Shown piece by piece: positions 34,365-60,304 of a DNA stretch of 64,000 nt (position 1 is the stretch's first letter; each line of letters begins with the position of its first letter). Origin of the DNA: a virus. A program made the translations under genes and the position numbers. The notes under the pieces were generated by a model. That model ran no database searches. It was not told the origin of the DNA and saw only the letters and a program-made list of their open reading frames with translations. The stretch lies in IMG/VR virus record IMGVR_UViG_3300008267_012518. One strand, written 5' to 3'.

Positions 34365-34540
34365 TAGGTCGTAGCCTCATCAATTGAAAGCTGCTTCCAT
34401 AGTTCTATATTTTCGTCAGTTACCTTATCATCAGTAACTGATATTTCTTTGAAATAATACCTACCATCTTCATTATCTACACGAATGAAACATTCATAAA
34501 ATCCACCATATTGGTAAAAATTTGCAATCGAAGCTGTCAT
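34349..34540 (-). CDS. Small protein between the fibre genes (possible assembly chaperone)
   Basis: 63 aa overlapping both neighbours. Confidence 0.45.
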   Translation of the reverse strand: MTASIANFYQYGGFYECFIRVDNEDGRYYFKEISVTDDKVTDENIELWKQLSIDEATTYWENL

Positions 34541-37500
34541 GTTCTTTTTCCTATTAATTCTACCAACCCCGTAGAAGCCATAAAATATAAATGGGTTCTT
34601 GAATTAGCTGTGTAATTTAGATCTGTATCAATATCACCAGTATTATACTGCGTATCATATGATAAAGTTCTTGAACCAGTACCATCTTGTGTAACAATTA
34701 CACCAAAATATTTTACATCAGTCCCTGTTGGCATATTAGTTGGGTTTTCTAAAGTTCTATTACCTCCCAATGTAACACTAAATATGGAACTATTAGAGTC
34801 GGTTATATCAATCGAAATTGTAGCGGCATCTATCAAAACAGTAGGTGTGATACTTCCACCACCCCCACCACCTGATCCGGCTGGTCCTTGTGGACCAGTT
34901 GGGCCCTGAGAACCAGTTGATCCCTTAGCCGATAATTGATCCCACCCATTTGCTACAGAGGGTGTTACGGACAAAGGTCCCCCCGAATTATTATACCAGG
35001 TCTCACCATTATAGGTGACTATATCACCCACAGCATAAATACTTGGTGGTGCCTGCCAGGTACCTTGAAAATACCAATCTGGAGTTGTGCCACTATCACC
35101 TGCTGGACCTGTTGACCCCTGAGGGCCAGTGGGTCCTTGGGATCCAGTTGCACCAGTAGCACCTCTAGATCCTTGAGAACCAGTTGCACCACCGGATAAT
35201 TCCGAAATAGTATAGATAGAACCACTCGATAATGTACCACCACCTGAAACGAATGTTAAACCCCAATTCCAAGTAGGTGTAGGAATACCATGAGAAGTAA
35301 GACGATATATGCCATAATTTGAAGAATTTCCTACTTCTGATATTTGTGCAGTTATTGGCTTTGGTGCCAGATAGTCAGTGAAAATATTCACTAACCAATT
35401 ATAGATAATATTTCCATAAATATCTGTAGGATATCCTGTAGGGGATGGTGGTGAATTGAAACTAATACTTGAGATAGAGCTAAAACTATAACCACCTGAT
35501 GTACCAAAGTTAACATTAAAACTACCAGTCGCACTTGGTGTGCTCGAAGCGGAAGATCCAAATGAAAGCCTTACTGAATTTGGACCGTCAGATCCTGTTA
35601 ATCCAGTCGATCCTTGTGGACCAGTAGTTCCTTGAAATCCAGTTGATCCCTGAAAACCTTGAGGTCCTTGTGGACCAGTAGCACCAATTGACGATATAAC
35701 TAATATAACTTCGTGATTGTTTGGAAAATTAGTATATCCAAGACCAGTAGCAGTCACTAAACTTACTGGTATCTCTACATAAGTATTTGGTACTATAGTC
35801 AATGATCCATTAACTAACCATTGTTGGTAAGAGGTAGAATCATTTCTATCTTGGATAATTATTTTATCACCAGCAGATATTAATTCTAAAAATATATCTA
35901 CATCATCTCCTGACTCATCTATGTGTGACACGGATAATGCAGTAGCTGATATTTGTGTTGGGTTATTCCAAATTATATATCCTGTGGGTGCAACGTAACC
36001 ATCTACAAAATAAGAACCTGTTACATATGACTCTACAGTTGAACTAGTAATTGCTAAATAGTTGAAAAATTGATTCGACTGTCCTTTTTGACCCTGAGGA
36101 CCTTGTGGACCTGTATTTCCTTGAAATCCTTGTGGACCAGTAAATCCTTGTGGTCCGGTTGTTCCTTGGGTTCCTGTATTTCCTTGTGGACCAGTGTTTC
36201 CTTGGGTTCCAGTCGAACCTTGGGATCCACTACCTTGCGGACCTGTTTCACCTTGTGGTCCGGTTGTTCCTTGGTCACCAGTAAATCCTTGTGAACCAGT
36301 TACACCCTGATAACCTGTAAATCCTTGTGGACCTGTTGAACCTTGACTACCGGTGGGTCCAGTACTTCCGGAACCTGTTCCGCCACCCGCTGGACCTTGA
36401 GGACCTGTCGTACCCTGGGGACCGGTTGTTCCAGAACCTGTACCACCAGTTGATGGTTTAGCCTCCCATCTCGAATTTGTGCCACTCCATTGTAGAACAT
36501 CACCATCGTTTGGAGTTGTATAAAAGACATCATGTAATTCTTTTAATTCATATCCAGTATCAACCTTGACAAATATTTTCCCATTGTTTTGATGAGCATA
36601 TACCACATATCCAACAATTATTATGTGATTTGGAGCCTGTGGAATGACATTCGTTATACCACCTGGTACACTAGATGACAGATATAAAACATCTCCATCG
36701 GACCAAGATTCGCCATGAAAACTAGTAGCCGTGGTATTTATACCGTTAACAAGTCCAAAGGTAGTTATAAAACCTTCCTCATTATTTAATATTGTTTCAG
36801 TTACTATACCTAGTGTAGTAGTTGAGTCTGGATCATTATCACCTTGTGATAGAACAACTGCTAATCTTTGACCTTGAGAACCACCCTCAGTTGTTATACG
36901 TATCCTAACTACCTTATATTCTGATTCTAATAAATCACTGCCCGACTTATTAACTACTCTTACTACATTCTCTTGACCAATTTGAAGATTGACATTACCA
37001 CCCTTTAAACCTAAATTTAATGTACCATCAGTATCATTCCAATAAAGTCGACCTGGTGATGAGATAGATGTGCTCTGTGTGTAAAAATCTATATAATCTA
37101 AATTGGTAATCTCGTGGTTCAACATATTAATTGATGTTGAAGCGGTATTTCCCTGTGTCAAAACAATTGACAGTGATGGTGTAGGACCGAGTGGACCAGT
37201 CACTCCTTGATATCCTTGTGGACCAGTCACTCCTTGATATCCTTGTGGACCACCAGCGGGCCCAGATGGTCCAGCTGGACCTTGATTACCAGCACCGCCA
37301 CCAATAATTATTGTACCACTTAATGTAGCACCAAAATTTATATCGATTGAATATGTGGATGTGTGTATAATGGAAGCGGGAAAGATATTGTTTCCCAAAT
37401 CATCAATAATTTGAACCAATGGATAAGAACCACTACTGTGTGTGACAGTTATATTATCAACAAGTATGAATGGGATATTTAATGAAGGAGCAGCTGAAGG

Positions 37501-37773
37501 ACCAGTAACACCCTGTGATCCGGTAACACCTTGTATTCCTGTAGATCCTTGTGGTCCGGTAGATCCTTGTGACCCATCTATACCAGTAGATCCAGCATCT
37601 CCTACTGGTCCTTGTGGGCCAGTAGGACCCACATCTCCTTGAGGTCCAACTGAAACAGAACCTATTATAGAAAAAAGTTCGTTACCAAACCCATCATAAT
37701 AGGTATCACCTATTACTTGCACTAATCTACCATAAGTTGAGGACACCGTTTGACCGGTTAAACTATATGTCAT
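34537..37773 (-). CDS. Collagen-like mosaic tail-fibre protein
   Basis: Several Gly-X-Y blocks (GPQG-x-T) between globular modules; CBM5/12-like YAVGDIVTYNGETWY; C-terminal VTLGGNRTL...VTQDGTGSRTL. Confidence 0.8.
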   Translation of the reverse strand: MTYSLTGQTVSSTYGRLVQVIGDTYYDGFGNELFSIIGSVSVGPQGDVGPTGPQGPVGDAGSTGIDGSQGSTGPQGSTGIQGVTGSQGVTGPSAAPSLNIPFILVDNITVTHSSGSYPLVQIIDDLGNNIFPASIIHTSTYSIDINFGATLSGTIIIGGGAGNQGPAGPSGPAGGPQGYQGVTGPQGYQGVTGPLGPTPSLSIVLTQGNTASTSINMLNHEITNLDYIDFYTQSTSISSPGRLYWNDTDGTLNLGLKGGNVNLQIGQENVVRVVNKSGSDLLESEYKVVRIRITTEGGSQGQRLAVVLSQGDNDPDSTTTLGIVTETILNNEEGFITTFGLVNGINTTATSFHGESWSDGDVLYLSSSVPGGITNVIPQAPNHIIIVGYVVYAHQNNGKIFVKVDTGYELKELHDVFYTTPNDGDVLQWSGTNSRWEAKPSTGGTGSGTTGPQGTTGPQGPAGGGTGSGSTGPTGSQGSTGPQGFTGYQGVTGSQGFTGDQGTTGPQGETGPQGSGSQGSTGTQGNTGPQGNTGTQGTTGPQGFTGPQGFQGNTGPQGPQGQKGQSNQFFNYLAITSSTVESYVTGSYFVDGYVAPTGYIIWNNPTQISATALSVSHIDESGDDVDIFLELISAGDKIIIQDRNDSTSYQQWLVNGSLTIVPNTYVEIPVSLVTATGLGYTNFPNNHEVILVISSIGATGPQGPQGFQGSTGFQGTTGPQGSTGLTGSDGPNSVRLSFGSSASSTPSATGSFNVNFGTSGGYSFSSISSISFNSPPSPTGYPTDIYGNIIYNWLVNIFTDYLAPKPITAQISEVGNSSNYGIYRLTSHGIPTPTWNWGLTFVSGGGTLSSGSIYTISELSGGATGSQGSRGATGATGSQGPTGPQGSTGPAGDSGTTPDWYFQGTWQAPPSIYAVGDIVTYNGETWYNNSGGPLSVTPSVANGWDQLSAKGSTGSQGPTGPQGPAGSGGGGGGSITPTVLIDAATISIDITDSNSSIFSVTLGGNRTLENPTNMPTGTDVKYFGVIVTQDGTGSRTLSYDTQYNTGDIDTDLNYTANSRTHLYFMASTGLVELIGKRT
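37191..37252. repeat. 27-bp tandem repeat inside a collagen block
   Basis: GTGGACCAGTCACTCCTTGATATCCTT twice plus a partial third copy; encodes GPQGYQGVT. Confidence 0.85.
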
Positions 37774-44787: not shown

Positions 44788-45228
44788 ACCAACCTTGTAT
44801 AACTGCACGTAATCACTACAAATTCCAAAACATTTACTGAAATCATCATCAAAAATTTCTGGTAGTACGGCAATACTATTGATAATTGGTTGTTTACCAG
44901 GGTATACCCACATAAATTTTCGAGAGGTTAGTGTTAGTGTGTCTTCTTGATGCCAGAAAAAGTTCAAATCAAAATTCAGAGACAACAAATGACTAACAAG
45001 TGGTGTATTTTTACAGTGTATCCACAAATTATTTTGTCTCTCTAAAATCCAATCTAAACTTATTGGTGTTTTAGGCTCATCATGACCCAAATAAAGAATA
45101 TCATCAACAATCCATAGATCTATTTCAACATCAAATCCTTGTGACAAGGCATCATCTATATAATCTTGTTGATTTTCTCTATCCGAGTTTCTTCCGTTAG
45201 TATTTCCCCTATGAGATATGTATTTCAT
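44758..45228 (-). CDS. Short GDPD/PI-PLC-like phosphodiesterase-fold protein
   Basis: ISHRGN, FDVEIDL, LGHD, WIHCKN; start overlaps the RLP stop codon. Confidence 0.65.
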   Translation of the reverse strand: MKYISHRGNTNGRNSDRENQQDYIDDALSQGFDVEIDLWIVDDILYLGHDEPKTPISLDWILERQNNLWIHCKNTPLVSHLLSLNFDLNFFWHQEDTLTLTSRKFMWVYPGKQPIINSIAVLPEIFDDDFSKCFGICSDYVQLYKVGSKPLDNLRN

Positions 45229-46457
45229 TAAAAAATTCTATAAGCTAAATCTTCATGAAAATTCTTTACACCCCATTTTTCGATTGCTGCCAAATACTCT
45301 TTTTCAGTAGTGTGTCCATCGATAGATTGTCTCATCGCTCTACCACCAGCTAGTGTGCCCATCGGGTGACCATGCATCGCACCACCAACATTAGCCATCC
45401 AATCATGTGATTTCAGATACTCATTGACGTACTGAACCAATCCTGGATGCATTCCACAACTCAAAGCTGGAACGACATTATACTTCCATAAAACCTCAAG
45501 GGCATCTTTGAGTTCGGTATCATCTTGGTTCATATATCCACCAATCATACCAGCGTGAATTGAATCAACACCGGACCATCCAGCAATCTTACAAAGTACA
45601 GGCCAGTAAATGTGATTTGGAGCACGTTTATCGGTGAAAAACTTATCACCACTTTTCTGAAAATGTATCCAAAGGTTTGGATTTTGTTTTCGAATTGCTC
45701 TAAATACCCCCAATCCACTCCAAACATTTATATGAATTCCGGTTCCACCTTCTTGAGCAACAAAATTAGCTCTTTCGAGAGCATATGGAGAATCACCATT
45801 TATACAAAAGGTATAAATTACATCAGGTGCATTTTTTTGTAACCAGTTAGAAATTAAAGGAACCCTTTGTTTTAAAGAACAGTGGTTTGGATCTCCAAGT
45901 AACTCATCTTCTTTGATAAAGTTGACACCACCATCTACCATCTCCTTGACAGCTTCTAACAGTATTGTTGGTGACATTCCAACCTTTGGTTTGATGATAC
46001 CACCGAAAAACGGTTTTTCATGTGTGTTGGAATATTTTCTAAAACCATCAATACCATACGCAGGTTTCAGTCTAAAACTGTTTTCAATATCTTTTGGTAA
46101 TTCAATATCCAAAACATGACATTGTTCGATTTCTAATATATCAACCTGACCACCAGCAATATGACATAAAATTTGTGAAATACCATCTTCCTCAAGATTG
46201 ATGTTTTCAAAAGGGAAAGCGATTTTTACTATTCCCTCATTCTTGGATTTTAGTACACTCTCATCCTCTAAAATAAAACAAGAATGATCCAAAAACATTT
46301 GGTCGGTCTCCCAAACACTTCTATTGTTTGGATTACCAATGCTTTGACCTATTGCCAAATTCCAAGCGGCATCTCTAAGTGAAGTTTTACCTTTGAGGAA
46401 GTATGTAACTATGAAGTATTTGTCGTAATCTATAATATCAGTAAATATATTGACCAT
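45228..46457 (-). CDS. RuBisCO-like protein (RLP) with a divergent active site
   Basis: IIKPKVG (K175/K177), GVNFIKEDE (K201/D203/E204), DSIHAG, PALSCG, VGGAMHGHPMG. Confidence 0.93.
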   Translation of the reverse strand: MVNIFTDIIDYDKYFIVTYFLKGKTSLRDAAWNLAIGQSIGNPNNRSVWETDQMFLDHSCFILEDESVLKSKNEGIVKIAFPFENINLEEDGISQILCHIAGGQVDILEIEQCHVLDIELPKDIENSFRLKPAYGIDGFRKYSNTHEKPFFGGIIKPKVGMSPTILLEAVKEMVDGGVNFIKEDELLGDPNHCSLKQRVPLISNWLQKNAPDVIYTFCINGDSPYALERANFVAQEGGTGIHINVWSGLGVFRAIRKQNPNLWIHFQKSGDKFFTDKRAPNHIYWPVLCKIAGWSGVDSIHAGMIGGYMNQDDTELKDALEVLWKYNVVPALSCGMHPGLVQYVNEYLKSHDWMANVGGAMHGHPMGTLAGGRAMRQSIDGHTTEKEYLAAIEKWGVKNFHEDLAYRIF

Positions 46458-46496
46458 TTATTTTTTTTATTTTTATATTAAAAACCTAGCATAAGT

Positions 46497-47609
46497 TTAA
46501 TCTCCATCACTGAGTGATATTTTTTTTGTTTTTGATAGGGCTGAACCAATTACTTGGTGCATGTCATAATATTTATATTCCGCTAATCTTCCACCAAAAA
46601 TAAATTTATTATCATCCATTGATAATTTTTTATATTGATCATAAATTTTATTATTTGTGTCATCATTGATCGGATAATAAGCTTCATTGTTTATCGAAAA
46701 GTCCTGTGGGTATTCTTTTGTAATTATGGTATAATTAGTATTTTTGAATTCGAAGTGTTTGTGTTCGATTATTCTAGTCCAAGGTATGTCTTTATCGGTG
46801 TAATTCACACCAGCCACTCCTTGATAGTTATCTACATCAACTAATTCGTTTACAAACTTGAGACTTCTATATTTTAACTTACCGTACCGGTATCCGTAAA
46901 ACTCATCTATCTTTCCAGTGAAAACTATTTTTTTAGCTATACCATTCCAATAATCTTTACTATTGAAATAGTCAACATTCAATTTAATCTCGATTCCATC
47001 TAATATGTTACTCACCATCTGTGTATATCCACCGATTGGAATTCCTTGGTACAGATCATTAAAATAATTATTATCGTAATTAAATCTGAGTGGTATTCTT
47101 TTTATAATAGATACAGGTAAATTTTTTGGATCCGTACCCCATTGTTTGTAGGTGTATCCGTATATGAGTTTTTCATAGATATCTTTACCAACATTACTTA
47201 GAGCAAACTCCTCAAGATTGTTACAAAATTCAAAATTTATTAAATCTTGATTGATCTTTTTTCTGGCCTCGTTTGGTGTAGTAACCCCCCAAAGACCCTT
47301 GAAAGTGTTCATATTGAAAGGTAGATTATAAAGTTGATCCCCATATCTTGCTAATGGTTCATACCGAAAATTATTGAAACTTATAAATCTGTTTACATAA
47401 TCCCAAATACCTTTGTCAGATGTGTGAAAGATATGTGGTCCGTATTTGTGAACATTTATACCATCCAAATTTTCAGTAAATACATTCCCCCCTATATGAT
47501 TTCTTTTGTCTATAATCAGACAACTTTTACCTCGATCTGTCATCTCTCGAGCAAATACAGCACCAAATAACCCACATCCAACGATCAGATAATCGTATTC
47601 ATATTTCAT
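46497..47609 (-). CDS. glf: UDP-galactopyranose mutase
   Basis: GCGLFG, HIGGN, HKYGPHIFHT, YTYKQWG, YQGIP, TRIIEHKHF, GGRLAEYKYYDMHQ. Confidence 0.96.
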   Translation of the reverse strand: MKYEYDYLIVGCGLFGAVFAREMTDRGKSCLIIDKRNHIGGNVFTENLDGINVHKYGPHIFHTSDKGIWDYVNRFISFNNFRYEPLARYGDQLYNLPFNMNTFKGLWGVTTPNEARKKINQDLINFEFCNNLEEFALSNVGKDIYEKLIYGYTYKQWGTDPKNLPVSIIKRIPLRFNYDNNYFNDLYQGIPIGGYTQMVSNILDGIEIKLNVDYFNSKDYWNGIAKKIVFTGKIDEFYGYRYGKLKYRSLKFVNELVDVDNYQGVAGVNYTDKDIPWTRIIEHKHFEFKNTNYTIITKEYPQDFSINNEAYYPINDDTNNKIYDQYKKLSMDDNKFIFGGRLAEYKYYDMHQVIGSALSKTKKISLSDGD

Positions 47610-48328: not shown

Positions 48329-48649
48329 TCAAATTATATATTTGTCACCGACAATCGAAGGTGATTTTATTACTAAAATATTACAATCGGTCAGAAATAT
48401 AGGATCAGCAATCTCATTTGGTCTTAATATAAAAATATCATCCTTTTTTAATTTACGACCTTGAATGATCATCTTTCCCTTTAGAATAAGGTTAATCTCC
48501 GTTGCTAATTTATGAAAATGGGTTGGCCATTTTTCGCCCTTTTTGTGTGTGAGGATCCCGACTTCAAAATCACCTTGTTTAAAACAAGAAGGTTCGAAGT
48601 CACCAATAAACCAACCTCTGTGAAAATTATTGAGTTTGAATGTTTCCAT
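48329..48649 (-). CDS. Cupin-fold protein (possible sugar epimerase/isomerase)
   Basis: GWFIGDFEP and the metal motif HFHKLATE. Confidence 0.7.
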   Translation of the reverse strand: METFKLNNFHRGWFIGDFEPSCFKQGDFEVGILTHKKGEKWPTHFHKLATEINLILKGKMIIQGRKLKKDDIFILRPNEIADPIFLTDCNILVIKSPSIVGDKYII

Positions 48650-49328
48650 TTTGTAGATATTTTTTTAAATCGTCTGGAGTACCAATAGGAAAGTGTTGAT
48701 TAAAAAGGTATATACCGATTTTTTGATTATTTTTGATTAGATAGTTATATGTTGGTGCAACATAATATTCACCATTTGTTTTGTCTTCATTTTTTACCAT
48801 TTGTTCATAAGATTCAAAAAAATCCGAGGCTTTATTCCAATAATGCAACCCGTTTGTGGCTAAATTAGATATTACTTGTTTTTCCTTCACATCTTTGACT
48901 AAATTATTTTCGTCAATTTGAACATAAGAATTTTTTTGGTGGTTGGATATAAAACATCCAAAACATCCATCAAATTGCCTAGCATATCTGATAAATAAAT
49001 CTAAATTCCAATCTTTTATTATTTGGTCACAGTTTGTTATGATTAATTCTGAATTAGGATCAATCGAATCTTTGGCTAAATAAGCTGTCGAAGCAGGTCC
49101 CTCTGTCGTATAATCGATTTCTATTACTTTCGATCCAAAAGATTGGAAACTATGTCCCTTTCTTCCAATGACTGTTATATCAATTTTTTGATCTACAAAA
49201 TTATTGATTACGTGCTCGATCATATTTCTACCATCCCAAGAAATCAAAGGTTTTGGCTCGATCCACTCAGAATTAATAAATCTAGTCCCCCTACCCGCAG
49301 CTAATATAATTAAATTTATTTTATCCAT
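48627..49328 (-). CDS. Sugar-phosphate nucleotidyltransferase (RmlA/GlmU fold)
   Basis: ILAAGRGTRF, PKPLI, TNCDQ, GTPDDL. Confidence 0.82.
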   Translation of the reverse strand: MDKINLIILAAGRGTRFINSEWIEPKPLISWDGRNMIEHVINNFVDQKIDITVIGRKGHSFQSFGSKVIEIDYTTEGPASTAYLAKDSIDPNSELIITNCDQIIKDWNLDLFIRYARQFDGCFGCFISNHQKNSYVQIDENNLVKDVKEKQVISNLATNGLHYWNKASDFFESYEQMVKNEDKTNGEYYVAPTYNYLIKNNQKIGIYLFNQHFPIGTPDDLKKYLQNGNIQTQ

Positions 49329-50923: not shown

Positions 50924-52291
50924 TTATTTATAATTTTCTAAAAAATAATTTAGATCTTCTGGTGTACCCAATCCCCACATATTTTCGACATGGTAAGTTT
51001 TTATTTTTTTACCATCATTAATCGCCAGATTATAAACAGGACACACATAAAATTCACCATTTATCCTCATATTCTTTTCAATCATTTCCTCCGAATATTT
51101 AACAAAATCACTACCACGTTTCCAATAATAAAAACCAACGGTTGCTAAATCCGATATTGGGTTTTTTTCCGAAACTTCACTAACATAACCATCTTCACCT
51201 ACTCTAGCGAATGACCACTTTGGGTGAGTTGAAGTAAATGTCACTATACCACCATCCAAATCACACTCATTCATTTTGTAAAAAAAATCGTTGGAATCCC
51301 ACTCTACAAACTGATCCGAATTAGCAAAAAACAATGGTAGGTCTACATTTATAATATCTTTAGATAAAAGAGCACTACAAGCGGCCCCTTCGGTCACACC
51401 ATCAACTTCTACGATTTTACAATTTGGAGTAATTAGGTTTAGTAGTGTTCCTAAATTATATTTTTCCTTATGTGACTTTTGAACAATGTAAATGTAGTTA
51501 GCTTTGATATTCAAATTTTCAACAACAACTTGAATCATGGGTTTATTCCTAACATCAATTAGTGGCTTAGGAAAAGTATACCCAACTTTTTCAAATCTCG
51601 AACCTTGTCCAGCCATGGGTATAATCACATTTAATTTCTCATCAGACCAATAAGGTATTGGATTTTTTTTATCCATCTCCAAAATGTTGATTTTACTCTT
51701 GATGAAATCCGAAGTTATTTCAGATGGTGAATTTATCCTTATAACATTCGATTTACTATTTGAGGCCGCGTACAATCCTGGTGGCGAATCTTCTAAAATT
51801 AAAGTTTCGTTGGGTAAAAAACCGAAGTAGGACATCGCTTTCCAATAAATCTCAGGATGTGGTTTTGGAAATTCAACATCTTCATTTGACAAAAGTAAGT
51901 CAAAGAATTCTATAATACCCAATCTAGATAATGAAGTTAAAACGGTTTTCTTAATACTATTTGAACAAACAGCGATTTTATATTTCTCTGATAACTCAGT
52001 TAAACAATCTATGAGGTTATTGTTAATACTCAAACTTTGTAGTTTTTGTAAGGTGATTTTTTGTTTTTTCTGCCAAATTTCGTCATACTCCGTTACTGGT
52101 AAATTTTTCTCCAGTGTCAAAATTTGTAATTTCTGATTTGTTTTAAGACCATCAAATTTTGACAAATGATCTTCCCAAGATATAGAGTATTTATCACCAA
52201 GTGCCAAATTCAAGGCTTCGTAATGAATCTTTTTAGCATCAACTAAGACACCATCAAGATCAAAAATAATAAATTTAATTTTGTTTTTCAA
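50924..52291 (-). CDS. HAD phosphatase fused to a sugar-phosphate nucleotidyltransferase
   Basis: FDLDGVL, KPHPEIY, ILEDS; then IPMAGQGSRF, PKPLI, ANSDQ, GLGTPEDL. Confidence 0.88.
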   Translation of the reverse strand: MKNKIKFIIFDLDGVLVDAKKIHYEALNLALGDKYSISWEDHLSKFDGLKTNQKLQILTLEKNLPVTEYDEIWQKKQKITLQKLQSLSINNNLIDCLTELSEKYKIAVCSNSIKKTVLTSLSRLGIIEFFDLLLSNEDVEFPKPHPEIYWKAMSYFGFLPNETLILEDSPPGLYAASNSKSNVIRINSPSEITSDFIKSKINILEMDKKNPIPYWSDEKLNVIIPMAGQGSRFEKVGYTFPKPLIDVRNKPMIQVVVENLNIKANYIYIVQKSHKEKYNLGTLLNLITPNCKIVEVDGVTEGAACSALLSKDIINVDLPLFFANSDQFVEWDSNDFFYKMNECDLDGGIVTFTSTHPKWSFARVGEDGYVSEVSEKNPISDLATVGFYYWKRGSDFVKYSEEMIEKNMRINGEFYVCPVYNLAINDGKKIKTYHVENMWGLGTPEDLNYFLENYK

Positions 52292-52959: not shown

Positions 52960-53963
52960 AATGAATATTTACTTTCTATATAATTTTTAATCCATTTATA
53001 GTTGAAATATTTATCTACAATATAAATCTGATTCAATAAGCATTTTTGATAAAGGAATTCATCCTTTTGTAACAACGTATACTTCTCTACAAATTCCTCA
53101 GCGGTTGAAAATAAAGTTTCTTCTGAAAAATAATCACCATCCTCAAATGGAAAAACCAAATCTGTTCTTTGCATCAACATAAGTGAGTTTGTAGATAATC
53201 CCTCAAAAAACCTTTTACATAAATGACCAGTACCGTTAAGATTAAGGAAATATTTAAAACTTGAAATTGCTTTAATAAAGTCAGCGTTGCTCAAGTTATT
53301 AGCAGTCAATAGATATGGATGAATTTTTTGCAAAATTTCCAAGCGGTTACAATACTCATCTGGGTATGGTTCTCTTGTTCTGTATATTGCTGTCCCAGCC
53401 CAAAAACAAGATGGTATTCTATTTTCTGGAATTATTTTAATTCTCTCCTCATAAAGTGTCCAAGGAGCATTTGGTTTACCATAAACAATAAACGGAAATG
53501 GGAAAACATCATCATCATACTCATCAATCCAATCCTTTCTGTATTCTCTTTTGAAAACAAAATCACATTTCATATTGTTTTCTCTGAGCCACATCAATCC
53601 ACCTCGGACCACTGCTCTGTCAGTGTCGTCCAAATAAATAACTCTATTTATTTTGATGTTTGAAAGTTTATCGTAGATCATTTTGAAATACTCTCTTCTT
53701 TCTGAGGTATTTGGTGTGTATGGCATGTCATTGAATGTATGGACTGGCCAAATGAATACTACCATATCATATTCATTTTCCAAAAGAGACCAATCTTCAA
53801 TAACATCGATACCGTATCTATCCTCACAATATTTTTTGTCCGGAATAACTTGAAGTTCCTTAAATTGATCCAAGGGAATGAATGGAGAAAAATAATCACA
53901 AGGTTCAAAAAGATGAAAAGCTGGTGGAAAATGTTTCTCTAAATCGATGATTAAATTTTTCAT
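52956..53963 (-). CDS. Putative glycosyltransferase (CgeB/GT47-like C-terminus)
   Basis: CFWAG, FLNLNGTGHLCKRFFEGL. Confidence 0.5.
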   Translation of the reverse strand: MKNLIIDLEKHFPPAFHLFEPCDYFSPFIPLDQFKELQVIPDKKYCEDRYGIDVIEDWSLLENEYDMVVFIWPVHTFNDMPYTPNTSERREYFKMIYDKLSNIKINRVIYLDDTDRAVVRGGLMWLRENNMKCDFVFKREYRKDWIDEYDDDVFPFPFIVYGKPNAPWTLYEERIKIIPENRIPSCFWAGTAIYRTREPYPDEYCNRLEILQKIHPYLLTANNLSNADFIKAISSFKYFLNLNGTGHLCKRFFEGLSTNSLMLMQRTDLVFPFEDGDYFSEETLFSTAEEFVEKYTLLQKDEFLYQKCLLNQIYIVDKYFNYKWIKNYIESKYSL

Positions 53964-54865
53964 AGTGTGTTTAAATTTTTTTTAATCCAATCAATAACAT
54001 CAACTCTTGGTTCAAATCCAAGTACCTCCCTAATTTTACTAATATCAGCGAGAGTATTTTCGGCCTCACCAGGTCTATAATCCAAGTGTACTTGTTTACT
54101 ACTGATAAGATCTGCTATTTCTTTTATTGATATGTTTTTACCAGAACCAACATTTAATACAGTGGCTCCAATTTTATTTTTTGAATTCATCGCTAAAATA
54201 TTTACATCAACTACGTCACCAACATAGATGAAGTCCCTTCTTTTATCACCCATCCCAACAATAGTTAAATCTTGTTGTTTTTCAAATTGATCCAAGAAAA
54301 TACCTAAAACAGGAGCGTAATTACCCTTCACTGGGCTTCTTTCTCCAAACACATTAAAGTACCTGAAAATGACTGAATCTAATTTGTGCATTTTCCAATA
54401 ATATCTGAAGATATCCTCTCCCAAAAATTTTGAATGTGAGTATGGATTAAGAAAATCAGTCGAATTGTCTTCCTTAGTAGGTAGATTTTCAGTCAAACCA
54501 TATACAGATGATGTAGATGAATACATTACCCTTTTTATCCCATGTTTGAGAGATAAATCTAGAATATTTAACGTGCCTATTACATTCACATTATATGCTC
54601 GATGAGGGTTTTGTATTGCGGGTTGAATCCTTGATTCTGCAGCTAAGTGAAAAACATAGTCCACCCCAACAAATAGACAGTCTATTTGTTCCTTATCACA
54701 AATATCAAATTTGTGATAAGTTGTCCTCTCATTGAAGTAAAATTTATCATTTTCGGATGCTGATAAGTCATCAATAACAACTACTTCATGACCTAGATTG
54801 ACCAACTTATCAACTAGATTACTCCCAATAAACCCAGAACCACCGGTTACTATTATTTTATACAT
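53960..54865 (-). CDS. NAD-dependent nucleotide-sugar epimerase/dehydratase
   Basis: TGGSGFIG, SSTSSVYG, YSHSK, FRYFNVFG, RDFIYVGD. Confidence 0.9.
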   Translation of the reverse strand: MYKIIVTGGSGFIGSNLVDKLVNLGHEVVVIDDLSASENDKFYFNERTTYHKFDICDKEQIDCLFVGVDYVFHLAAESRIQPAIQNPHRAYNVNVIGTLNILDLSLKHGIKRVMYSSTSSVYGLTENLPTKEDNSTDFLNPYSHSKFLGEDIFRYYWKMHKLDSVIFRYFNVFGERSPVKGNYAPVLGIFLDQFEKQQDLTIVGMGDKRRDFIYVGDVVDVNILAMNSKNKIGATVLNVGSGKNISIKEIADLISSKQVHLDYRPGEAENTLADISKIREVLGFEPRVDVIDWIKKNLNTL

Positions 54866-54869
54866 AATT

Positions 54870-55586
54870 TTATTGTTCTTTTATCATTTTTTTGAATTTG
54901 GTTGCCGACCAACCGTGTTTTCTTGGAATAAAAAATGTATTTATATTTAGTTTCAACCCATTATGGTCTTTACCAATATAATCATCTCCCAAAAAAAGTA
55001 TATCTGGTTTTACATTTTCAGTCAAAGAAATCAATTCACTTTCAGTATTATAAAAAAATACTTCATCAACATATTTTAATGAAGTCAATATTTTTTTTCT
55101 TTCTTCTTTGGAAAGTATTGGTTTGGGCTTACCCCTCTCAATCGAAGGATTATTGTGCAACCCAACCACCAAATACTCACAATTTTTCTTCGCCAATTCA
55201 AACATATGAATATATCCAGGATGAATTACATCAAAAGCGCCTGCTATAAAACCAATTTTGGGATTTGTATTCTTTTTGAAATCTTCAATAGATAAATTTT
55301 TATCATCTATAAAAAAATCAAAAGATGGTTTTCCTAAAATCAATTCATTATATTTTACACCCCACGATTTAAGCTGTGTAGTAGTCAGGTCAAATAAATT
55401 ATTATAAACTAAACTGACATTACCTTTGTAAGTTGTCATCCCTCTAGCCGTAAATATTTTTATATAATGACCCACATCAAACAAATTGTTGACTTTTAAG
55501 ATCATTTCATCATTTGGATAAGATGAGGAATAATTATTTGAGTCTGTACTACAAATAGTGTTATCTAGGTCGAAACAATAAATCAT
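54870..55586 (-). CDS. HAD-like phosphatase fused to a cytidylyltransferase-fold nucleotidyltransferase
   Basis: FDLDNTI...GKP..FIDDK; then GAFDVIHPGY, ER..IL.SLKYVDEV, GDDY. Confidence 0.8.
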   Translation of the reverse strand: MIYCFDLDNTICSTDSNNYSSSYPNDEMILKVNNLFDVGHYIKIFTARGMTTYKGNVSLVYNNLFDLTTTQLKSWGVKYNELILGKPSFDFFIDDKNLSIEDFKKNTNPKIGFIAGAFDVIHPGYIHMFELAKKNCEYLVVGLHNNPSIERGKPKPILSKEERKKILTSLKYVDEVFFYNTESELISLTENVKPDILFLGDDYIGKDHNGLKLNINTFFIPRKHGWSATKFKKMIKEQ

Positions 55587-55595
55587 AAAATTGAA

Positions 55596-56576
55596 TTAAT
55601 TAAAATTACCTAGAATAACTGAACCAAGTTTGTCTATGTCAAAATGTAACCTTTTATAACCTCTACCTGTCATAAAATTCTCAACTTCTGTGTGATTTTT
55701 TTCAGTGAACAGTAGTAAAAATCCACCACCACCAGCGCCCACTATTTTACCACCAAGAACGCCAAATAACTCCTTTGTCATTTCATAGGTCATATCAACT
55801 TCCGACACTGATATCTTATCAGAAAGACTCTTTTTCATTTTCCAATATTCGTCTAAGAGTATTCCATACTTCTTAAAGTCTCCAGACTCAAGAATACTCA
55901 ATACCTCATAAGCTTGCTGTTTTATTTTCAAGAGGGTTTCCTCTGAATTACCCTTTAATTGTTTCTGATCTTGTAAAACCTCTGATGCGTCTCTTTTGAC
56001 GTTTGTGTAATAAAGATGGACGTGCGAAAGAAATCTATTAAGCTCACTTTGTGATAAGTTTACCTCTTTTATATCAACGTTTCCATTGGTATCTATATCT
56101 AAGATTTTCAAACCACCAAACGCAGCAATATATTGATCCTGTTTACCAACTGGCTCACCTAACTTATCAATCTCAATATAACATGCCTCTTCTGCCAGAA
56201 CGATTGGTTCACGGTTTAACCTTTTGATTTCTCTAACAACGTTTGATAGACCCACTAAGAAACTACCCGAACTACCAAGACCGGTATTAGAAGGTAGATC
56301 AGCACAGGTGTTGACCTCAAATGAGTTAAACATATTGTGGTGTAAAAATAGTTCTTTAGCTCTATGATTTTTTAAATCTGATGCATTATCAACAATTTCA
56401 ATTTGAGAATACCTAAGTTTAAGGTAATTTTCGAATTCATCAGGTTTCAAAGTTATATAGATGTATTTGTTAATAGCTAGAGATATTACAAATCCTCCGT
56501 GTTTGGAGTAGAAGGATGGTAAGTCGGTACCACCACCAGCAATTGTTATTCTCAAAGGTGTTCTGGAAAGTATCAT
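55596..56576 (-). CDS. hddA: GHMP-family sugar 1-kinase, HddA/LmbP-like
   Basis: RTPLRITIAGGGTD, DLPSNTGLGSSG, GKQDQY, GAGGGGF. Confidence 0.85.
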   Translation of the reverse strand: MILSRTPLRITIAGGGTDLPSFYSKHGGFVISLAINKYIYITLKPDEFENYLKLRYSQIEIVDNASDLKNHRAKELFLHHNMFNSFEVNTCADLPSNTGLGSSGSFLVGLSNVVREIKRLNREPIVLAEEACYIEIDKLGEPVGKQDQYIAAFGGLKILDIDTNGNVDIKEVNLSQSELNRFLSHVHLYYTNVKRDASEVLQDQKQLKGNSEETLLKIKQQAYEVLSILESGDFKKYGILLDEYWKMKKSLSDKISVSEVDMTYEMTKELFGVLGGKIVGAGGGGFLLLFTEKNHTEVENFMTGRGYKRLHFDIDKLGSVILGNFN

Positions 56577-57271
56577 AGTTTATATCCAGCGTTTTTAGCG
56601 TCATCAAAAAACATTTGAACTGTTTCTCTTGAATATTCTGTCAAATCTTTATTAGACAAATTCAATTTTTTTATAAGATCTGGTGTAACAGTAATTATAT
56701 CACATCCAATTCTATCAGCTTCGAAGATATTGTATACTTCTCTAGTACTAGCCCATAAAATCTCATGCTTCGTAGAATCTCTTTTACCTAAAGCATACTC
56801 GATAATTGGTGATGGATTCACACCAGTGTCGGCGATTCGACCGGAAAAAATCGATATCACACTTTCGGTGTCTGAGTTCAATGAATTTAAAACATTATCT
56901 ATTTGTTCTTCAGTAAATACGGCTGTAATATTTAGTTTTATTTTCAGATCACTCATTTCCTTAATCAATTCATAAGTTGGAACACCTTTCGTATTCATAA
57001 CCGGAACTTTCACGTAAATATTTGGTGATATATTTGATAGTTTCATGATCTGAGATTTCATCTCTTGATAATCATCAGCGAAAATTTCAAAGGAAATTGG
57101 TAGATCCTTCACCTGATCAGTCACCTCCTTTATGAATGATAAATAATCTTTTACACCGGATTTCTTCATAAGTGAAGGGTTGGTTGTAAATCCACTCACC
57201 ATTGGATTGTTCTTGTATGTTTCCAATATTTCTGAGATATTAGAACCATCTGAAAAAATTTTTACTCTCAT
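56573..57271 (-). CDS. tal: Transaldolase (short class)
   Basis: GFTTNPSL, SFEIF, Schiff-base lysine in VKVP, NITAVF, SIFSGR, WASTRE. Confidence 0.9.
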   Translation of the reverse strand: MRVKIFSDGSNISEILETYKNNPMVSGFTTNPSLMKKSGVKDYLSFIKEVTDQVKDLPISFEIFADDYQEMKSQIMKLSNISPNIYVKVPVMNTKGVPTYELIKEMSDLKIKLNITAVFTEEQIDNVLNSLNSDTESVISIFSGRIADTGVNPSPIIEYALGKRDSTKHEILWASTREVYNIFEADRIGCDIITVTPDLIKKLNLSNKDLTEYSRETVQMFFDDAKNAGYKL

Positions 57272-57285
57272 ATTAAATATTTTTT

Positions 57286-57999
57286 TTAGGGTTTATAGAA
57301 AAATAACGCGTTTTCAGCGACGTGTGGTACTAAAAATCCAACATTTTTATTAGCGACGGCAGCTGGTCCTCTGTATTCTCTTTCACCAGTCTGTGATTGC
57401 CAATTTCTAAAATCATTAAAATCTTCCATCGCAATCTTTCTAATTTTGTTTGTTTCATCCTCATCGAATATGAAACCATACTCAGAAAATATTTGTTTCC
57501 AGTAGGTAAATGGTTGACAATTCACATGATTGTGACCAGACTGACCCGGTAAAGCGTGTGTCATAATCACACATTTAGACTTATCAAAGTCTTTCATAAA
57601 GTTGTGGACACCTAATTCATCAACGTGTTCAACAAATTCGACCGACCAACACAAATCAAAACTACCCGTAAGATCAGAAGGTCCAGTTGTGTAATCATGT
57701 GCTAAAATTTTTTCAGGAAAGAATGAAACGTCTCTAGCAATCTTAGAACCCTCAACTCCTTGTACCTCTAGACCTAAAAAATCCTTGAAATATTTAAGAT
57801 GGTATCCAAATCCACATCCGATATCTAAAACCGATTTAATATTGTATTTATCTACAATATATTTCCACATTTTCGGACACTCTGTTCCTGGGTCCCCATC
57901 GACATTACAACCACCTAAGTGACCATCGTTAAAACTCTGGTCAAAAAGTAATGATTCATGTTTATATTTTTTTATAGATTCTCTTATAGTATTAATCAT
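57286..57999 (-). CDS. Class I SAM-dependent methyltransferase
   Basis: VLDIGCGFG, GVEG, DLCWSVEFVEH. Confidence 0.8.
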   Translation of the reverse strand: MINTIRESIKKYKHESLLFDQSFNDGHLGGCNVDGDPGTECPKMWKYIVDKYNIKSVLDIGCGFGYHLKYFKDFLGLEVQGVEGSKIARDVSFFPEKILAHDYTTGPSDLTGSFDLCWSVEFVEHVDELGVHNFMKDFDKSKCVIMTHALPGQSGHNHVNCQPFTYWKQIFSEYGFIFDEDETNKIRKIAMEDFNDFRNWQSQTGEREYRGPAAVANKNVGFLVPHVAENALFFYKP

Positions 58000-58001
58000 A
58001 A

Positions 58002-58574
58002 TTATATTTTTTTATATAGAGCATTTACAACTAGGTGCAATATTACACCCTGCCATTCCTCTGCATGAGGTGTTATCTTTTCTTGGTCAACAACTGGTAT
58101 CAAAACACAACAATCGGATAATTCTTTTGATTTACCACCATCTCTAGACACAACTGATAACTTCATAGATCCAATCTCACTAGCGTATTCAAGACACCTA
58201 ACAAGGTTTAAGGAAACTTTATCGGTACCACCACCAACAGAAAAAATCAGAATAGCATCATTTTCACCAAACTGAGAAACCTTAAGCCAATTTAGATAAG
58301 AAGTTTCCCAACTTTCATCGTTTATTCTAGCGGTAAGTTCAGAAACATTCTCAGAAATTGAATATGATTCAATGTTGAGTATCTTTCTAAAATCATTCAC
58401 AGCATGAGCAGCATTTGCTGCACTCCCACCAACACCAGCGATGAACAATCTTCCTTTGCGATTTTTTAAAACTTGTATGTGATTTATAAAACTTATAATG
58501 TTTTCTTTATCAATCAAATCACATATTTGCTTTATCTGATTTAGGTAGTCACTTACGTAAATATTAAGATCCAT
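58002..58574 (-). CDS. gmhA: SIS-domain phosphosugar isomerase, GmhA/LmbN-like
   Basis: GVGGSAANAAH, NDFRK, LTARINDE, FSVGGG, HAEEWQ. Confidence 0.75.
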   Translation of the reverse strand: MDLNIYVSDYLNQIKQICDLIDKENIISFINHIQVLKNRKGRLFIAGVGGSAANAAHAVNDFRKILNIESYSISENVSELTARINDESWETSYLNWLKVSQFGENDAILIFSVGGGTDKVSLNLVRCLEYASEIGSMKLSVVSRDGGKSKELSDCCVLIPVVDQEKITPHAEEWQGVILHLVVNALYKKI

Positions 58575-58577
58575 AAT

Positions 58578-59252
58578 TTATTTTTTAATTATTCTGAAAC
58601 ACCCTTGGCTGTATCCTAAGTTTTGGTAAACTAGTGGTATGTAATCAAAACCAGTCTCAAGTAAAAATTCAGCAAATGCTTTAATTTCGTGATTTTTATA
58701 ATCAGGATAATCATTAATTTCATCAAATACTATGACTGTTCCATCAACAATTTTTTCTTTTAAATGTTTGAATATGGTTACCGCTGCGGAATAAATATCA
58801 CTATCGATGTGTATAAGGGCACAAACACCTGGTGTTTCCTGTACAAATTTAGGAAGAGTATCTTCGAACCACCCTTTTACTAAACTTACATTTTTTTTCC
58901 AGGGTTTTGTTCTGACGATAGCATTTGGAAGGAATGGTGAAACATTATCATCGTCTATAGATCCTGTAGGTATATTACCATTCAAATTAAACATACCTTG
59001 TGGATTATCATTATCCCATTTTTCAGGTAATCCCTCAAAAGAATCGAATCCATAAACAGGATTCTCTGTTCTATCAGCAAATTGAGCAAGACTTCTTCCT
59101 CTAAAAACACCAAATTCTATCCACATACCATCAATGGTTACTTGGTCAGCACATAGATTATGAAATGTTAGATGATTATCCCAAACGCCTACTGTGTTTG
59201 ATTCTTGCTTCATTCTATTTTCAATCTCGTCGATTTTTTCTTCAATTGTCAT
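58578..59252 (-). CDS. TylF/MycF-family O-methyltransferase
   Basis: IEFGVFRG, YGFDSFEGLPE, VKGWFEDTL, HIDSDIY, IVFDE. Confidence 0.85.
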   Translation of the reverse strand: MTIEEKIDEIENRMKQESNTVGVWDNHLTFHNLCADQVTIDGMWIEFGVFRGRSLAQFADRTENPVYGFDSFEGLPEKWDNDNPQGMFNLNGNIPTGSIDDDNVSPFLPNAIVRTKPWKKNVSLVKGWFEDTLPKFVQETPGVCALIHIDSDIYSAAVTIFKHLKEKIVDGTVIVFDEINDYPDYKNHEIKAFAEFLLETGFDYIPLVYQNLGYSQGCFRIIKK

Positions 59253-59293: not shown

Positions 59294-60304
59294 TTAAATT
59301 TTTCTACTCAAAAACAAATTATCAAATTCAGACATAACTCTACTAGGTGAATATCTGTCCTTATAAACGTCCCAATCTTTTGATTCAATATCTTTTTTTG
59401 AAATATTTATCAATATGTTAGATATATCTTTATCATCAGAATAGTATATAGCCTGGTCACCAAACACATAAAAGTGTCCAAAATCATATGGTGGAAAATT
59501 AAAATTTGGTTTCCAAGTTATTATAGGTTTATTCCTTATCGAAAATTCAGCAAGTGATAAGCTAAATATTTCACCATCCTCTCTAGCATGAATCATCGCG
59601 TCACAAGTATTTACAAACTTAGATTTCAATGAAAAGTCGGATGTATAATCAATGTAAAAAATATTCTTATGTTTATAAAATACATCAGTATTTAGAAATA
59701 CAAAATAAATATCATTCCTGATATTTAAAACATCAATAATAGCCTTTTTAACAAAGTTCAAATTAAAAGTATCTTTACCACCATGTCTACCGAGGACAAT
59801 AGCCTCTTTTGGTATACCAAACTCCTCCCTAAAATTTGAAACATTATCTGAATCATCTCTCTCTACAATAGGATATAAACAAGGGAAATCCATTTTGTAT
59901 TTATCAACCAAGTACTTACAAAGTAATGTAAAAACAGAACCATGTGGTGATATCCCTGGTCCACCAACCGCAGATACACAAGTATCTACATTTGTAGGCA
60001 AAACCCCATCATTAGAACCCTGTTTAATTGACCAAAAGTGAGTAACATTATTTTCGGAACAAATCTTCTCATGGGCTTGTCTCATATGGGAATTATCTCC
60101 ACCCAAGTCATATGGACATAGAATTGTTTTGAATTCTTTGTTGAACATTTCAAAACTAGGAGTTGGTCTAGCTGACGTCGAAATTATCAATGATTCGTTA
60201 CCAAGTATTTCCCTATTGTATTTTGCATATTTATACATATGAATTTCAGTACCCCGCTCACCAAGTTGGTAGGAATGAAAAGCTACAACCTTTGACATAA
60301 TCAT
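59294..60304 (-). CDS. GT-B fold glycosyltransferase
   Basis: GRHGG, FVNTCDAMIHAREDGEIF..SLAEF, KPIIT. Confidence 0.65.
   Translation of the reverse strand: MIMSKVVAFHSYQLGERGTEIHMYKYAKYNREILGNESLIISTSARPTPSFEMFNKEFKTILCPYDLGGDNSHMRQAHEKICSENNVTHFWSIKQGSNDGVLPTNVDTCVSAVGGPGISPHGSVFTLLCKYLVDKYKMDFPCLYPIVERDDSDNVSNFREEFGIPKEAIVLGRHGGKDTFNLNFVKKAIIDVLNIRNDIYFVFLNTDVFYKHKNIFYIDYTSDFSLKSKFVNTCDAMIHAREDGEIFSLSLAEFSIRNKPIITWKPNFNFPPYDFGHFYVFGDQAIYYSDDKDISNILINISKKDIESKDWDVYKDRYSPSRVMSEFDNLFLSRKI

Follow-up and report, generated by a model that had tools for sequence, protein, structure and literature searches.

In lincomycin biosynthesis, GDP-octose is made by the transaldolase LmbR, the isomerase LmbN, the kinase LmbP, the phosphatase LmbK and the nucleotidyltransferase LmbO (PMC12945683 and PMC5854111); as cited in PMC5854111, LmbR forms octulose-8-phosphate, which LmbN then isomerises. 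The pathway to GDP-D-glycero-alpha-D-manno-heptose (GmhA/HddA/GmhB/HddC), found in S-layer, capsule and O-antigen clusters, has no transaldolase in its canonical form. In full-text searches of the literature, we found no transaldolase-containing heptose or octose cassette described outside lincosamide biosynthesis. In the present study, we analyzed a stretch of 64,000 nucleotides (hereafter the window) from the IMG/VR virus record IMGVR_UViG_3300008267_012518, which carries on its minus strand, at positions 53960-58574, six co-oriented genes for an SIS isomerase, a methyltransferase, a transaldolase, a GHMP kinase, a HAD::nucleotidyltransferase fusion and an SDR epimerase. A first-pass annotation had described these adjacent genes as a self-contained higher-carbon sugar pathway, with reference to the Lmb enzymes. 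All six genes were found at these positions, the Lmb functions that it named agree with the two reports, and the idea of a self-contained pathway is supported because the block has one of each needed activity and is a conserved unit. We propose that the phage has here a functional version of a transaldolase-primed sugar-nucleotide cassette of wide distribution, and that its product is most likely an eight-carbon (C8) sugar, a reading to which we give a probability of about one half.

Coupling of the transaldolase and a divergent isomerase

The proteins of the window were assigned to domains with Pfam and NCBIfam models. The transaldolase (56573-57271, 232 aa) is of the TIGR02134 type: it narrowly passes this model (283.8 bits, cut-off 281.95), matches Pfam TAL_FSA at 121 bits, and fails the talC/FSA model TIGR00875 (82.7 bits, cut-off 245.95). 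Its residues Asp8, Glu62, Lys88 and Phe142 align with Asp6, Glu60, Lys86 and Phe132 of the Thermoplasma transaldolase, and together with Arg145 they form the classical catalytic set, all of which are invariant columns in our alignment of transaldolase homologues (alignment A1). Glu62, in the motif SFEIF, and Phe142, in SIFSGR, sit at the positions that distinguish transaldolases from fructose-6-phosphate aldolases, which have Gln and Tyr there; the earlier reading of these two residues was therefore correct. In the tree, the phage enzyme lies inside a viral subclade of the cassette clade. It resembles the "Staphylococcus-type" transaldolases of TIGR02134 in that it passes the curated cut-off and keeps all catalytic residues. 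However, the TIGR02134 members found here are mostly embedded beside a divergent isomerase in glycan clusters, unlike stand-alone housekeeping genes.

The SIS isomerase (58002-58574, 190 aa) is GmhA-like but divergent, as the first-pass annotation had noted from the motifs NDFRK and HAEEWQ. It fails the gmhA model TIGR00441 (46 bits, cut-off 209.45) and reaches 19.6 bits with Pfam SIS_2; its best PDB matches are GmhA structures (E 1e-6), and no other relatives were found among curated families and solved structures. The zinc/catalytic ligands of GmhA are His, Glu, Gln and His (PMC5387315), and the two motifs occupy zinc-ligand positions. The phage isomerase keeps both ligand His residues, with Asp (NDF) in place of the ligand Glu65 and Glu (HAEEW) in place of the ligand Gln175. 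At the position of the GmhA sequence STSGNSPN, its loop reads FSVGGG and has an insertion, and a further insertion has the form xxTP.

A scan of viral contigs with the single transaldolase sequence gave no matches, and a scan based on alignment A1 gave 80 viral and 80 bacterial loci, against which the window proteins were run by tblastn. The divergent SIS gene adjoins the transaldolase gene in 130 of these 160 transaldolase-centred loci, the kinase in 108 and the SDR in 99; the loci lacking SIS beside the transaldolase are mostly short contigs or stand-alone Lactobacillales transaldolases. In the reverse test, an alignment of cassette isomerases (A2) gave 79 further loci, from Planctomycetota, Clostridia, Chloroflexota, Acidobacteriota, Legionellales, Pelagibacteraceae, candidate phyla radiation (CPR) bacteria, Methanospirillum and a Micrarchaeota archaeon. 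Among the SIS-centred loci flanked on both sides by 3 kb or more, 52 of 55 contain a cassette-type (TIGR02134-type) transaldolase, usually directly adjacent. The near-obligate coupling of these two genes holds whichever of them the search starts from, and the cassette is not phage-specific but widespread in many bacterial phyla, some archaea and many phages. Since the coupling is ancestral in cellular cassettes, the suggestion that the transaldolase is a phage adaptation for control of the C7 supply is unsupported.

The typical bacterial form of the cassette consists of an SDR, a GHMP kinase, an RmlA-fold nucleotidyltransferase, an SIS isomerase fused or adjacent to a GmhB-like HAD phosphatase (111-137 bits), and the transaldolase. 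In four of five carrier genomes, a second, ordinary transaldolase is present elsewhere, and four of the five also have, outside the cassette, a far better gmhA match (118-192 bits, as compared with 39-56 bits for the cassette SIS); against TIGR00441, the better gmhA matches of carrier genomes score 118-214 bits. The transaldolase and isomerase of the cassette thus appear to be dedicated paralogues. A natural control is the locus L121 (L121:1067-12548) in an Ignavibacteriaceae metagenome-assembled genome (MAG; OY761615.1), where two parallel higher-sugar gene sets lie within one cluster. The first set has kinase, SDR and transferase genes with a canonical-like GmhA and no transaldolase, and the adjoining second set has the divergent SIS and the transaldolase. 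This arrangement speaks for a transaldolase product that serves specifically as substrate of the divergent isomerase and does not top up a pool already filled by ordinary metabolism. In the transaldolase-linked set of L121, the place expected for a phosphatase is taken by a gene of the phosphofructokinase family (PRK03202, 224 bits).

A cassette-type transaldolase was found in 36 of 81 sampled Coxiellaceae genomes (G420-G500), the same family as that of an uncultured Coxiellaceae MAG among our loci (L112). The Coxiella burnetii O-antigen genes CBU0674-CBU0678 include CBU0674, annotated as a phosphoheptose isomerase, and, close to it, CBU0678, a reversed HldE-like gene that is essential for phase I lipopolysaccharide (PMC5843353). 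No paper or supplement that we searched names a transaldolase at CBU0674-CBU0678, and a link of these genes to the cassette is a tentative lead.

Comparison with the lincosamide and heptose pathways

As comparators from the lincosamide side, we used Streptomyces genomes, reached via a codon-biased DNA pattern, of which 401 were searched with a transaldolase profile. Six of them contain lincosamide-type clusters (L290-L293 and L288-L289, in G392, G225, G127, G196, G356 and G220), recognised by gene order and not by named Lmb sequences. Four have the order NDP-sugar (nucleoside diphosphate sugar) dehydrogenase, SDR, SIS, GFO/IDH/MocA, GHMP kinase, nucleotidyltransferase, DegT aminotransferase and transaldolase, which is that of lmbL-M-N-Z-P-O-S-R. 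The other two are celesticetin-like, with a TldD/PmbA protein, an AMP-ligase and an O-methyltransferase.

The isomerases of these clusters and those of the cassette have in common four derived active-site characters that are absent from canonical GmhA: the replacement of the ligand Glu by Asp, the replacement of the ligand Gln by Glu, a loop of the form FSV[GH]GG with an insertion of three to five residues in place of STSGNSPN, and a four-residue xxTP insertion before the E..H helix. In the isomerase tree, which was a quick search with spurious long-branch rows left out, the cassette clade has 100% support, and the split of cassette plus lincosamide-type isomerases from canonical GmhA has a Shimodaira-Hasegawa-like approximate likelihood ratio test (SH-aLRT) support of 91%. 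In the same quick tree, the lincosamide-type isomerases are not sister to the phage clade alone; identity is about 29%, and long branches separate the cassette isomerases both from them and from canonical GmhA.

The two systems also share the same logic and set of activities, begun by a transaldolase that belongs to the pathway. Furthermore, the LmbM, LmbL and LmbZ families are found, in one operon, in extended bacterial cassettes. In about one third of the bacterial cassettes, the operon also includes an NDP-sugar dehydrogenase and a GFO/IDH/MocA oxidoreductase, so that up to eight families of the lincosamide sugar pathway co-occur there, a similarity at the level of families only. A fixed nine-gene operon, consisting in order of SDR, NDP-sugar dehydrogenase, short-chain dehydrogenase, GFO/IDH/MocA, GHMP kinase, nucleotidyltransferase, SIS, GmhB-like HAD and transaldolase, was seen in Bradyrhizobium liaoningense NBRC 100396 (L431:1054-8699) and in the loci L409, L412, L413 and L420, and is thus present in cultured strains. 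Other cultured carriers of the cassette are Skermanella aerolata KACC 11604 (L471) and Lachnospiraceae bacterium AC3007 (L334). The phage cassette differs from the lincosamide pathway in that its transferase has the cytidylyltransferase fold and not the RmlA fold, its phosphatase is of the TIGR01689 type, and neither an aminotransferase nor a carrier-protein domain is present.

The remaining enzymes of the block are related to those of heptose metabolism to various degrees. The kinase (55596-56576, 326 aa), an HddA-like sugar-1-kinase with Pfam GHMP_kinases_N/C domains, has HddA NF049969 as its best model (144 bits, cut-off 600), and its best solved relatives are heptose-7-phosphate kinases (4n3o, 3k85 and WcbL 4usk; E 1e-32 to 1e-34). 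In the fusion protein (54870-55586), the HAD part (residues 1-110) scores 57.6 bits with TIGR01689 and 18.9 bits with the HAD-IIIA model (cut-off 44.6). Its cytidylyltransferase-fold part (residues 104-238) scores 52 bits with Pfam CTP_transf_like, 78.8 bits with its best model, TIGR02199 rfaE_dom_II (cut-off 181.5), and 60.9 bits with a TagD-type model; PDB matches are 9iqw, 3elb, 1coz and 5x9q. The motif HxGH reads HPGY in the phage, its last residue being variable among homologues. The conserved motifs of 17 unique fused homologues are DxDxT, TARG, KP and DD in the HAD part and FDxxHxG and RxHxxS in the transferase part; related viral loci contain 19 such fusions, 23 transferases alone and 4 HAD proteins alone. 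The HAD-nucleotidyltransferase fusion proposed in the first-pass annotation is present, but its transferase is not LmbO- or HddC-like. In the phage form of the cassette, a TIGR01689-type HAD and a cytidylyltransferase-fold transferase take the place of the GmhB-type HAD and RmlA-fold transferase of the bacterial form; thus, the activating nucleotide may differ from GDP. The extended SDR nucleotide-sugar epimerase (53960-54865, 301 aa) matches Pfam Epimerase at 194 bits and scores higher with a GalE model (175.7 bits, cut-off 262) than with the heptose 6-epimerase model TIGR02197 (141 bits, cut-off 274.6). Its best PDB match is 4zrm, and it is 44-56% identical to the SDRs of related viral cassettes.

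In common with the GDP-heptose pathway, the block has a GmhA-superfamily SIS isomerase and a step for a HAD phosphatase, its kinase being HddA-like with a score far under the HddA cut-off, and the bacterial form of the cassette has, in addition, a GmhB-like HAD and an RmlA-fold transferase (again at the family level). However, besides the transaldolase, which that pathway lacks, the phage isomerase departs from GmhA in its model score, its metal ligands and its STSGNSPN-position loop, and the phage transferase and phosphatase are non-orthologous replacements of HddC and GmhB. The likeness to the ADP-heptose pathway lies in the transferase part of the fusion, whose best model is the adenylyltransferase domain II of HldE, followed by an SDR that is partly HldD-like; in contrast, the phage kinase has the GHMP fold and not the ribokinase fold, the HldE and HldD scores are far under the cut-offs, and HxGH is altered.

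Probable product and alternative explanations

From the gene content, we infer the following order of reactions. The transaldolase would transfer a three-carbon unit from fructose-6-phosphate (or sedoheptulose-7-phosphate) to an aldose phosphate; the resulting ketose phosphate would be one that is not available from ordinary metabolism in a suitable form. The acceptor would most likely be ribose-5-phosphate, which would give octulose-8-phosphate, as with LmbR. The LmbN-like SIS isomerase would convert the ketose phosphate to an aldose phosphate, the HddA-like GHMP kinase would phosphorylate C1, and the HAD domain would remove the terminal phosphate. The fused cytidylyltransferase-fold domain would then form the NDP-sugar, in which the nucleotide may be ADP or CDP rather than GDP. 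Epimerisation by the SDR would follow, two adjacent methyltransferases may O-methylate the sugar or its glycan, and glycosyltransferases of the surrounding island of about 19 kb would transfer the product. The proposal of a C8 sugar draws on the near-obligate coupling, the two sets of L121, the isomerase characters and the family-level parallel with the lmb sugar genes, all of which suggest an octose by comparison of genes and sequences.

Several observations weigh against an octose. At the two distinguishing positions, the lincosamide-type transaldolases carry Gln and Leu, whereas the phage enzyme and all aligned cassette enzymes keep Glu and Phe. The lincosamide-type enzymes score higher with TIGR00875 (talC/FSA) than with TIGR02134, form a long branch outside the cassette clade, and reach 62-112 bits on the cassette profile, below ordinary short transaldolases (95 bits). 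The phage transaldolase is, by these comparisons, not LmbR-like but a member of another subfamily. (The Gln at the Glu position of the lincosamide-type enzymes is as in fructose-6-phosphate aldolases.) Stand-alone transaldolases of Lactobacillales fall in the TIGR02134/cassette clade as well, and their presence there suggests that the chemistry is the ordinary one of sedoheptulose-7-phosphate and fructose-6-phosphate. The HddA model favours the phage kinase (144 bits) over the lincosamide-type kinase (89 bits), although the kinase comparison is uninformative, and common ancestry of the isomerases does not fix the length of the substrate. A transketolase-family gene was found in all five small-genome carriers tested (a methanogen, a DPANN archaeon and CPR bacteria), so that a supply of erythrose-4-phosphate and sedoheptulose-7-phosphate is possible in these organisms. 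We had considered the argument that small-genome carriers cannot make erythrose-4-phosphate; with this result in five of five, it is unsupported. Finally, we know of no report of an aldo-octose in a bacterial or phage glycan. The comparison of phylogenies with Lmb and housekeeping enzymes that was proposed with the first-pass annotation gave a divided answer, in which the isomerase resembles the lincosamide type (91% SH-aLRT in the quick tree), the transaldolase does not, and the kinase, compared by model scores, does not inform. As for its step from a dedicated transaldolase to a C8 sugar, the near-obligate coupling and the lincosamide-like isomerase features speak for it and the transaldolase that is not LmbR-like speaks against it; it is neither proven nor refuted.

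One explanation that we take seriously, and that falls somewhat short of an even chance, is an NDP-heptose pathway in which the transaldolase makes sedoheptulose-7-phosphate from fructose-6-phosphate and erythrose-4-phosphate as a built-in precursor supply, and the NDP-heptose is then epimerised and methylated. The divergent isomerase would act on sedoheptulose-7-phosphate, perhaps leading to a configuration at C2 that is not manno. Glycans commonly contain heptoses, some of them methylated. The classical transaldolase residues and the TIGR02134 membership, the stand-alone Lactobacillales enzymes nested in the same clade, the heptose-7-phosphate kinases as nearest solved relatives of the kinase, the GmhB-like phosphatase of the bacterial cassettes (111-137 bits) and the transketolase-family gene in every small-genome carrier tested all agree with such a pathway. 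However, canonical heptose clusters need no transaldolase, and the coupling is near-obligate even beside a housekeeping transaldolase and a canonical GmhA. At locus L121, moreover, the transaldolase-linked set has as its neighbour a set that has a canonical-like GmhA and does without a transaldolase. The isomerase also shows the same remodelling of ligands and loop as the lincosamide-type isomerases, of which LmbN, the characterised one, uses octulose-8-phosphate. An acceptor of another kind, for example arabinose-5-phosphate or a deoxy or amino aldose phosphate, would lead to a higher sugar distinct from both the lincosamide-type octose and a glycero-manno-heptose. The acceptor is not fixed by evidence from individual residues, and the long branches that set the cassette isomerases apart from both canonical GmhA and the lincosamide type would suit such a product, but no auxiliary enzyme for an unusual acceptor is conserved beside the transaldolase-isomerase pair, and we consider this explanation improbable.

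It is very improbable that the transaldolase gene is in the glycan island by location only and serves, like talC of cyanophages, as an auxiliary metabolic gene for the pentose-phosphate pathway in general. Cyanophage transaldolases that reroute the carbon flow of the host are well known, and cyanophage records give short matches to genes neighbouring the cassette region. The transaldolase gene, however, lies between pathway genes and overlaps the kinase gene by 4 nt (56573-56576), its product belongs to TIGR02134 and falls far under the talC/FSA cut-off (82.7 bits, cut-off 245.95), and it is co-inherited with the isomerase across bacteria, archaea and phages.

The extended gene block and its phage

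The six genes of the block are separated by gaps of 2-14 nt, apart from the one 4-nt overlap. The gene between those of the isomerase and the transaldolase (57286-57999) encodes a methyltransferase of the class-I S-adenosylmethionine type with weak matches to Pfam Methyltransf_23/11/25; its homologues occur in 17 of the 160 related loci, mostly viral, and at the same position in the viral contigs L009, L011 and L019. On the other side of the isomerase gene, also on the minus strand, lies a gene for a TylF-type sugar O-methyltransferase (58578-59252; Pfam TylF, 54.9 bits), homologues of which adjoin the cassette in 29 of the 160 transaldolase-centred loci, nearly all viral. Upstream of it on the same strand, a gene (59294-60304) encodes a 336-aa protein without a Pfam or NCBIfam match, which is co-conserved in the closest phage relatives; weak homologues (22-27% identity) were found at the same position in L006, L008, L009, L011, L012, L019 and L031. 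The block therefore reaches past 53960-58574, because the TylF-type and 336-aa genes travel with it in related phages. The order of all eight genes is repeated in L009, L011 and L019 with protein identities of 50-65%, so the arrangement is not due to chance. The fusion of HAD and cytidylyltransferase-fold domains and the added methyltransferases distinguish the phage version of the cassette, which, judged from its sequence, is intact and phage-adapted.

The record from which the window comes has a length of 178 kb and an estimated completeness of 78%; in it, neither a second transaldolase nor a second GmhA-like gene nor a transketolase was found. Its replication genes are of the T4 type, with a gp32-like single-strand-binding protein and both topoisomerase II subunits, and the carrier is a large, T4-like phage. 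The cassette is part of a continuous one-strand glycan island that extends from about 44.7 kb to the end of the window (about 19 kb) and contains genes for nucleotidyltransferases, SDR enzymes, methyltransferases, glycosyltransferases, a UDP-galactopyranose mutase and a RuBisCO-like protein. The last of these (45228-47609; Pfam RuBisCO_large, 117 bits), which resembles the large chain, adjoins the mutase. A stand-alone MobA-like transferase (48627-49328) and a second, distinct HAD::nucleotidyltransferase fusion (50924-52291, 455 aa), composed of HAD_2 and an RmlA-fold NTP_transferase, are also present, and with the fusion of the cassette the island thus codes for at least three sugar-activating enzymes.

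Outside the island, a 1078-aa protein (34537-37773) has collagen triple-helix repeats and a weak match to a chitin-binding module, and a 712-aa protein (25295-27433) has a sub-threshold C-terminal sorting domain of the type IX secretion system (23 bits, cut-off 27). Both are possible targets of glycosylation, and the pair gives a weak hint of a host in the Bacteroidota. The closest bacterial relatives of the phage isomerase (52-58% identity) are in Lachnospiraceae, other Clostridia and one Planctomycetota MAG (L091 and L326-L349), which do not obviously fit this hint.

New in the present study are the difference in the transaldolase active site from the lincosamide enzymes, the coupling counts in both directions, the two-set locus L121 and the result for transketolase. 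We see about an even chance that this phage and the bacteria and archaea that share its cassette make a nucleotide-activated aldo-octose for a glycan, that the octose pathway of lincomycin was recruited from a primary glycan pathway that is widespread but has been overlooked, and that aldo-octoses are common building blocks of glycans that composition analyses have missed. If so, a sugar class known only from lincosamide antibiotics would be a common component of microbial and phage glycans, and the origin of the antibiotic pathway would be explained. If the product is instead a heptose, the cassette would add a third route, not yet described, by which activated heptoses are made, and this route would provide its own precursor and use a remodelled isomerase. 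The enzymes of the cassette are small and appear to be soluble, and would be convenient for chemistry in vitro. In either case, phages carry complete pathways for rare sugars, presumably for decoration of the virion or remodelling of the host surface.

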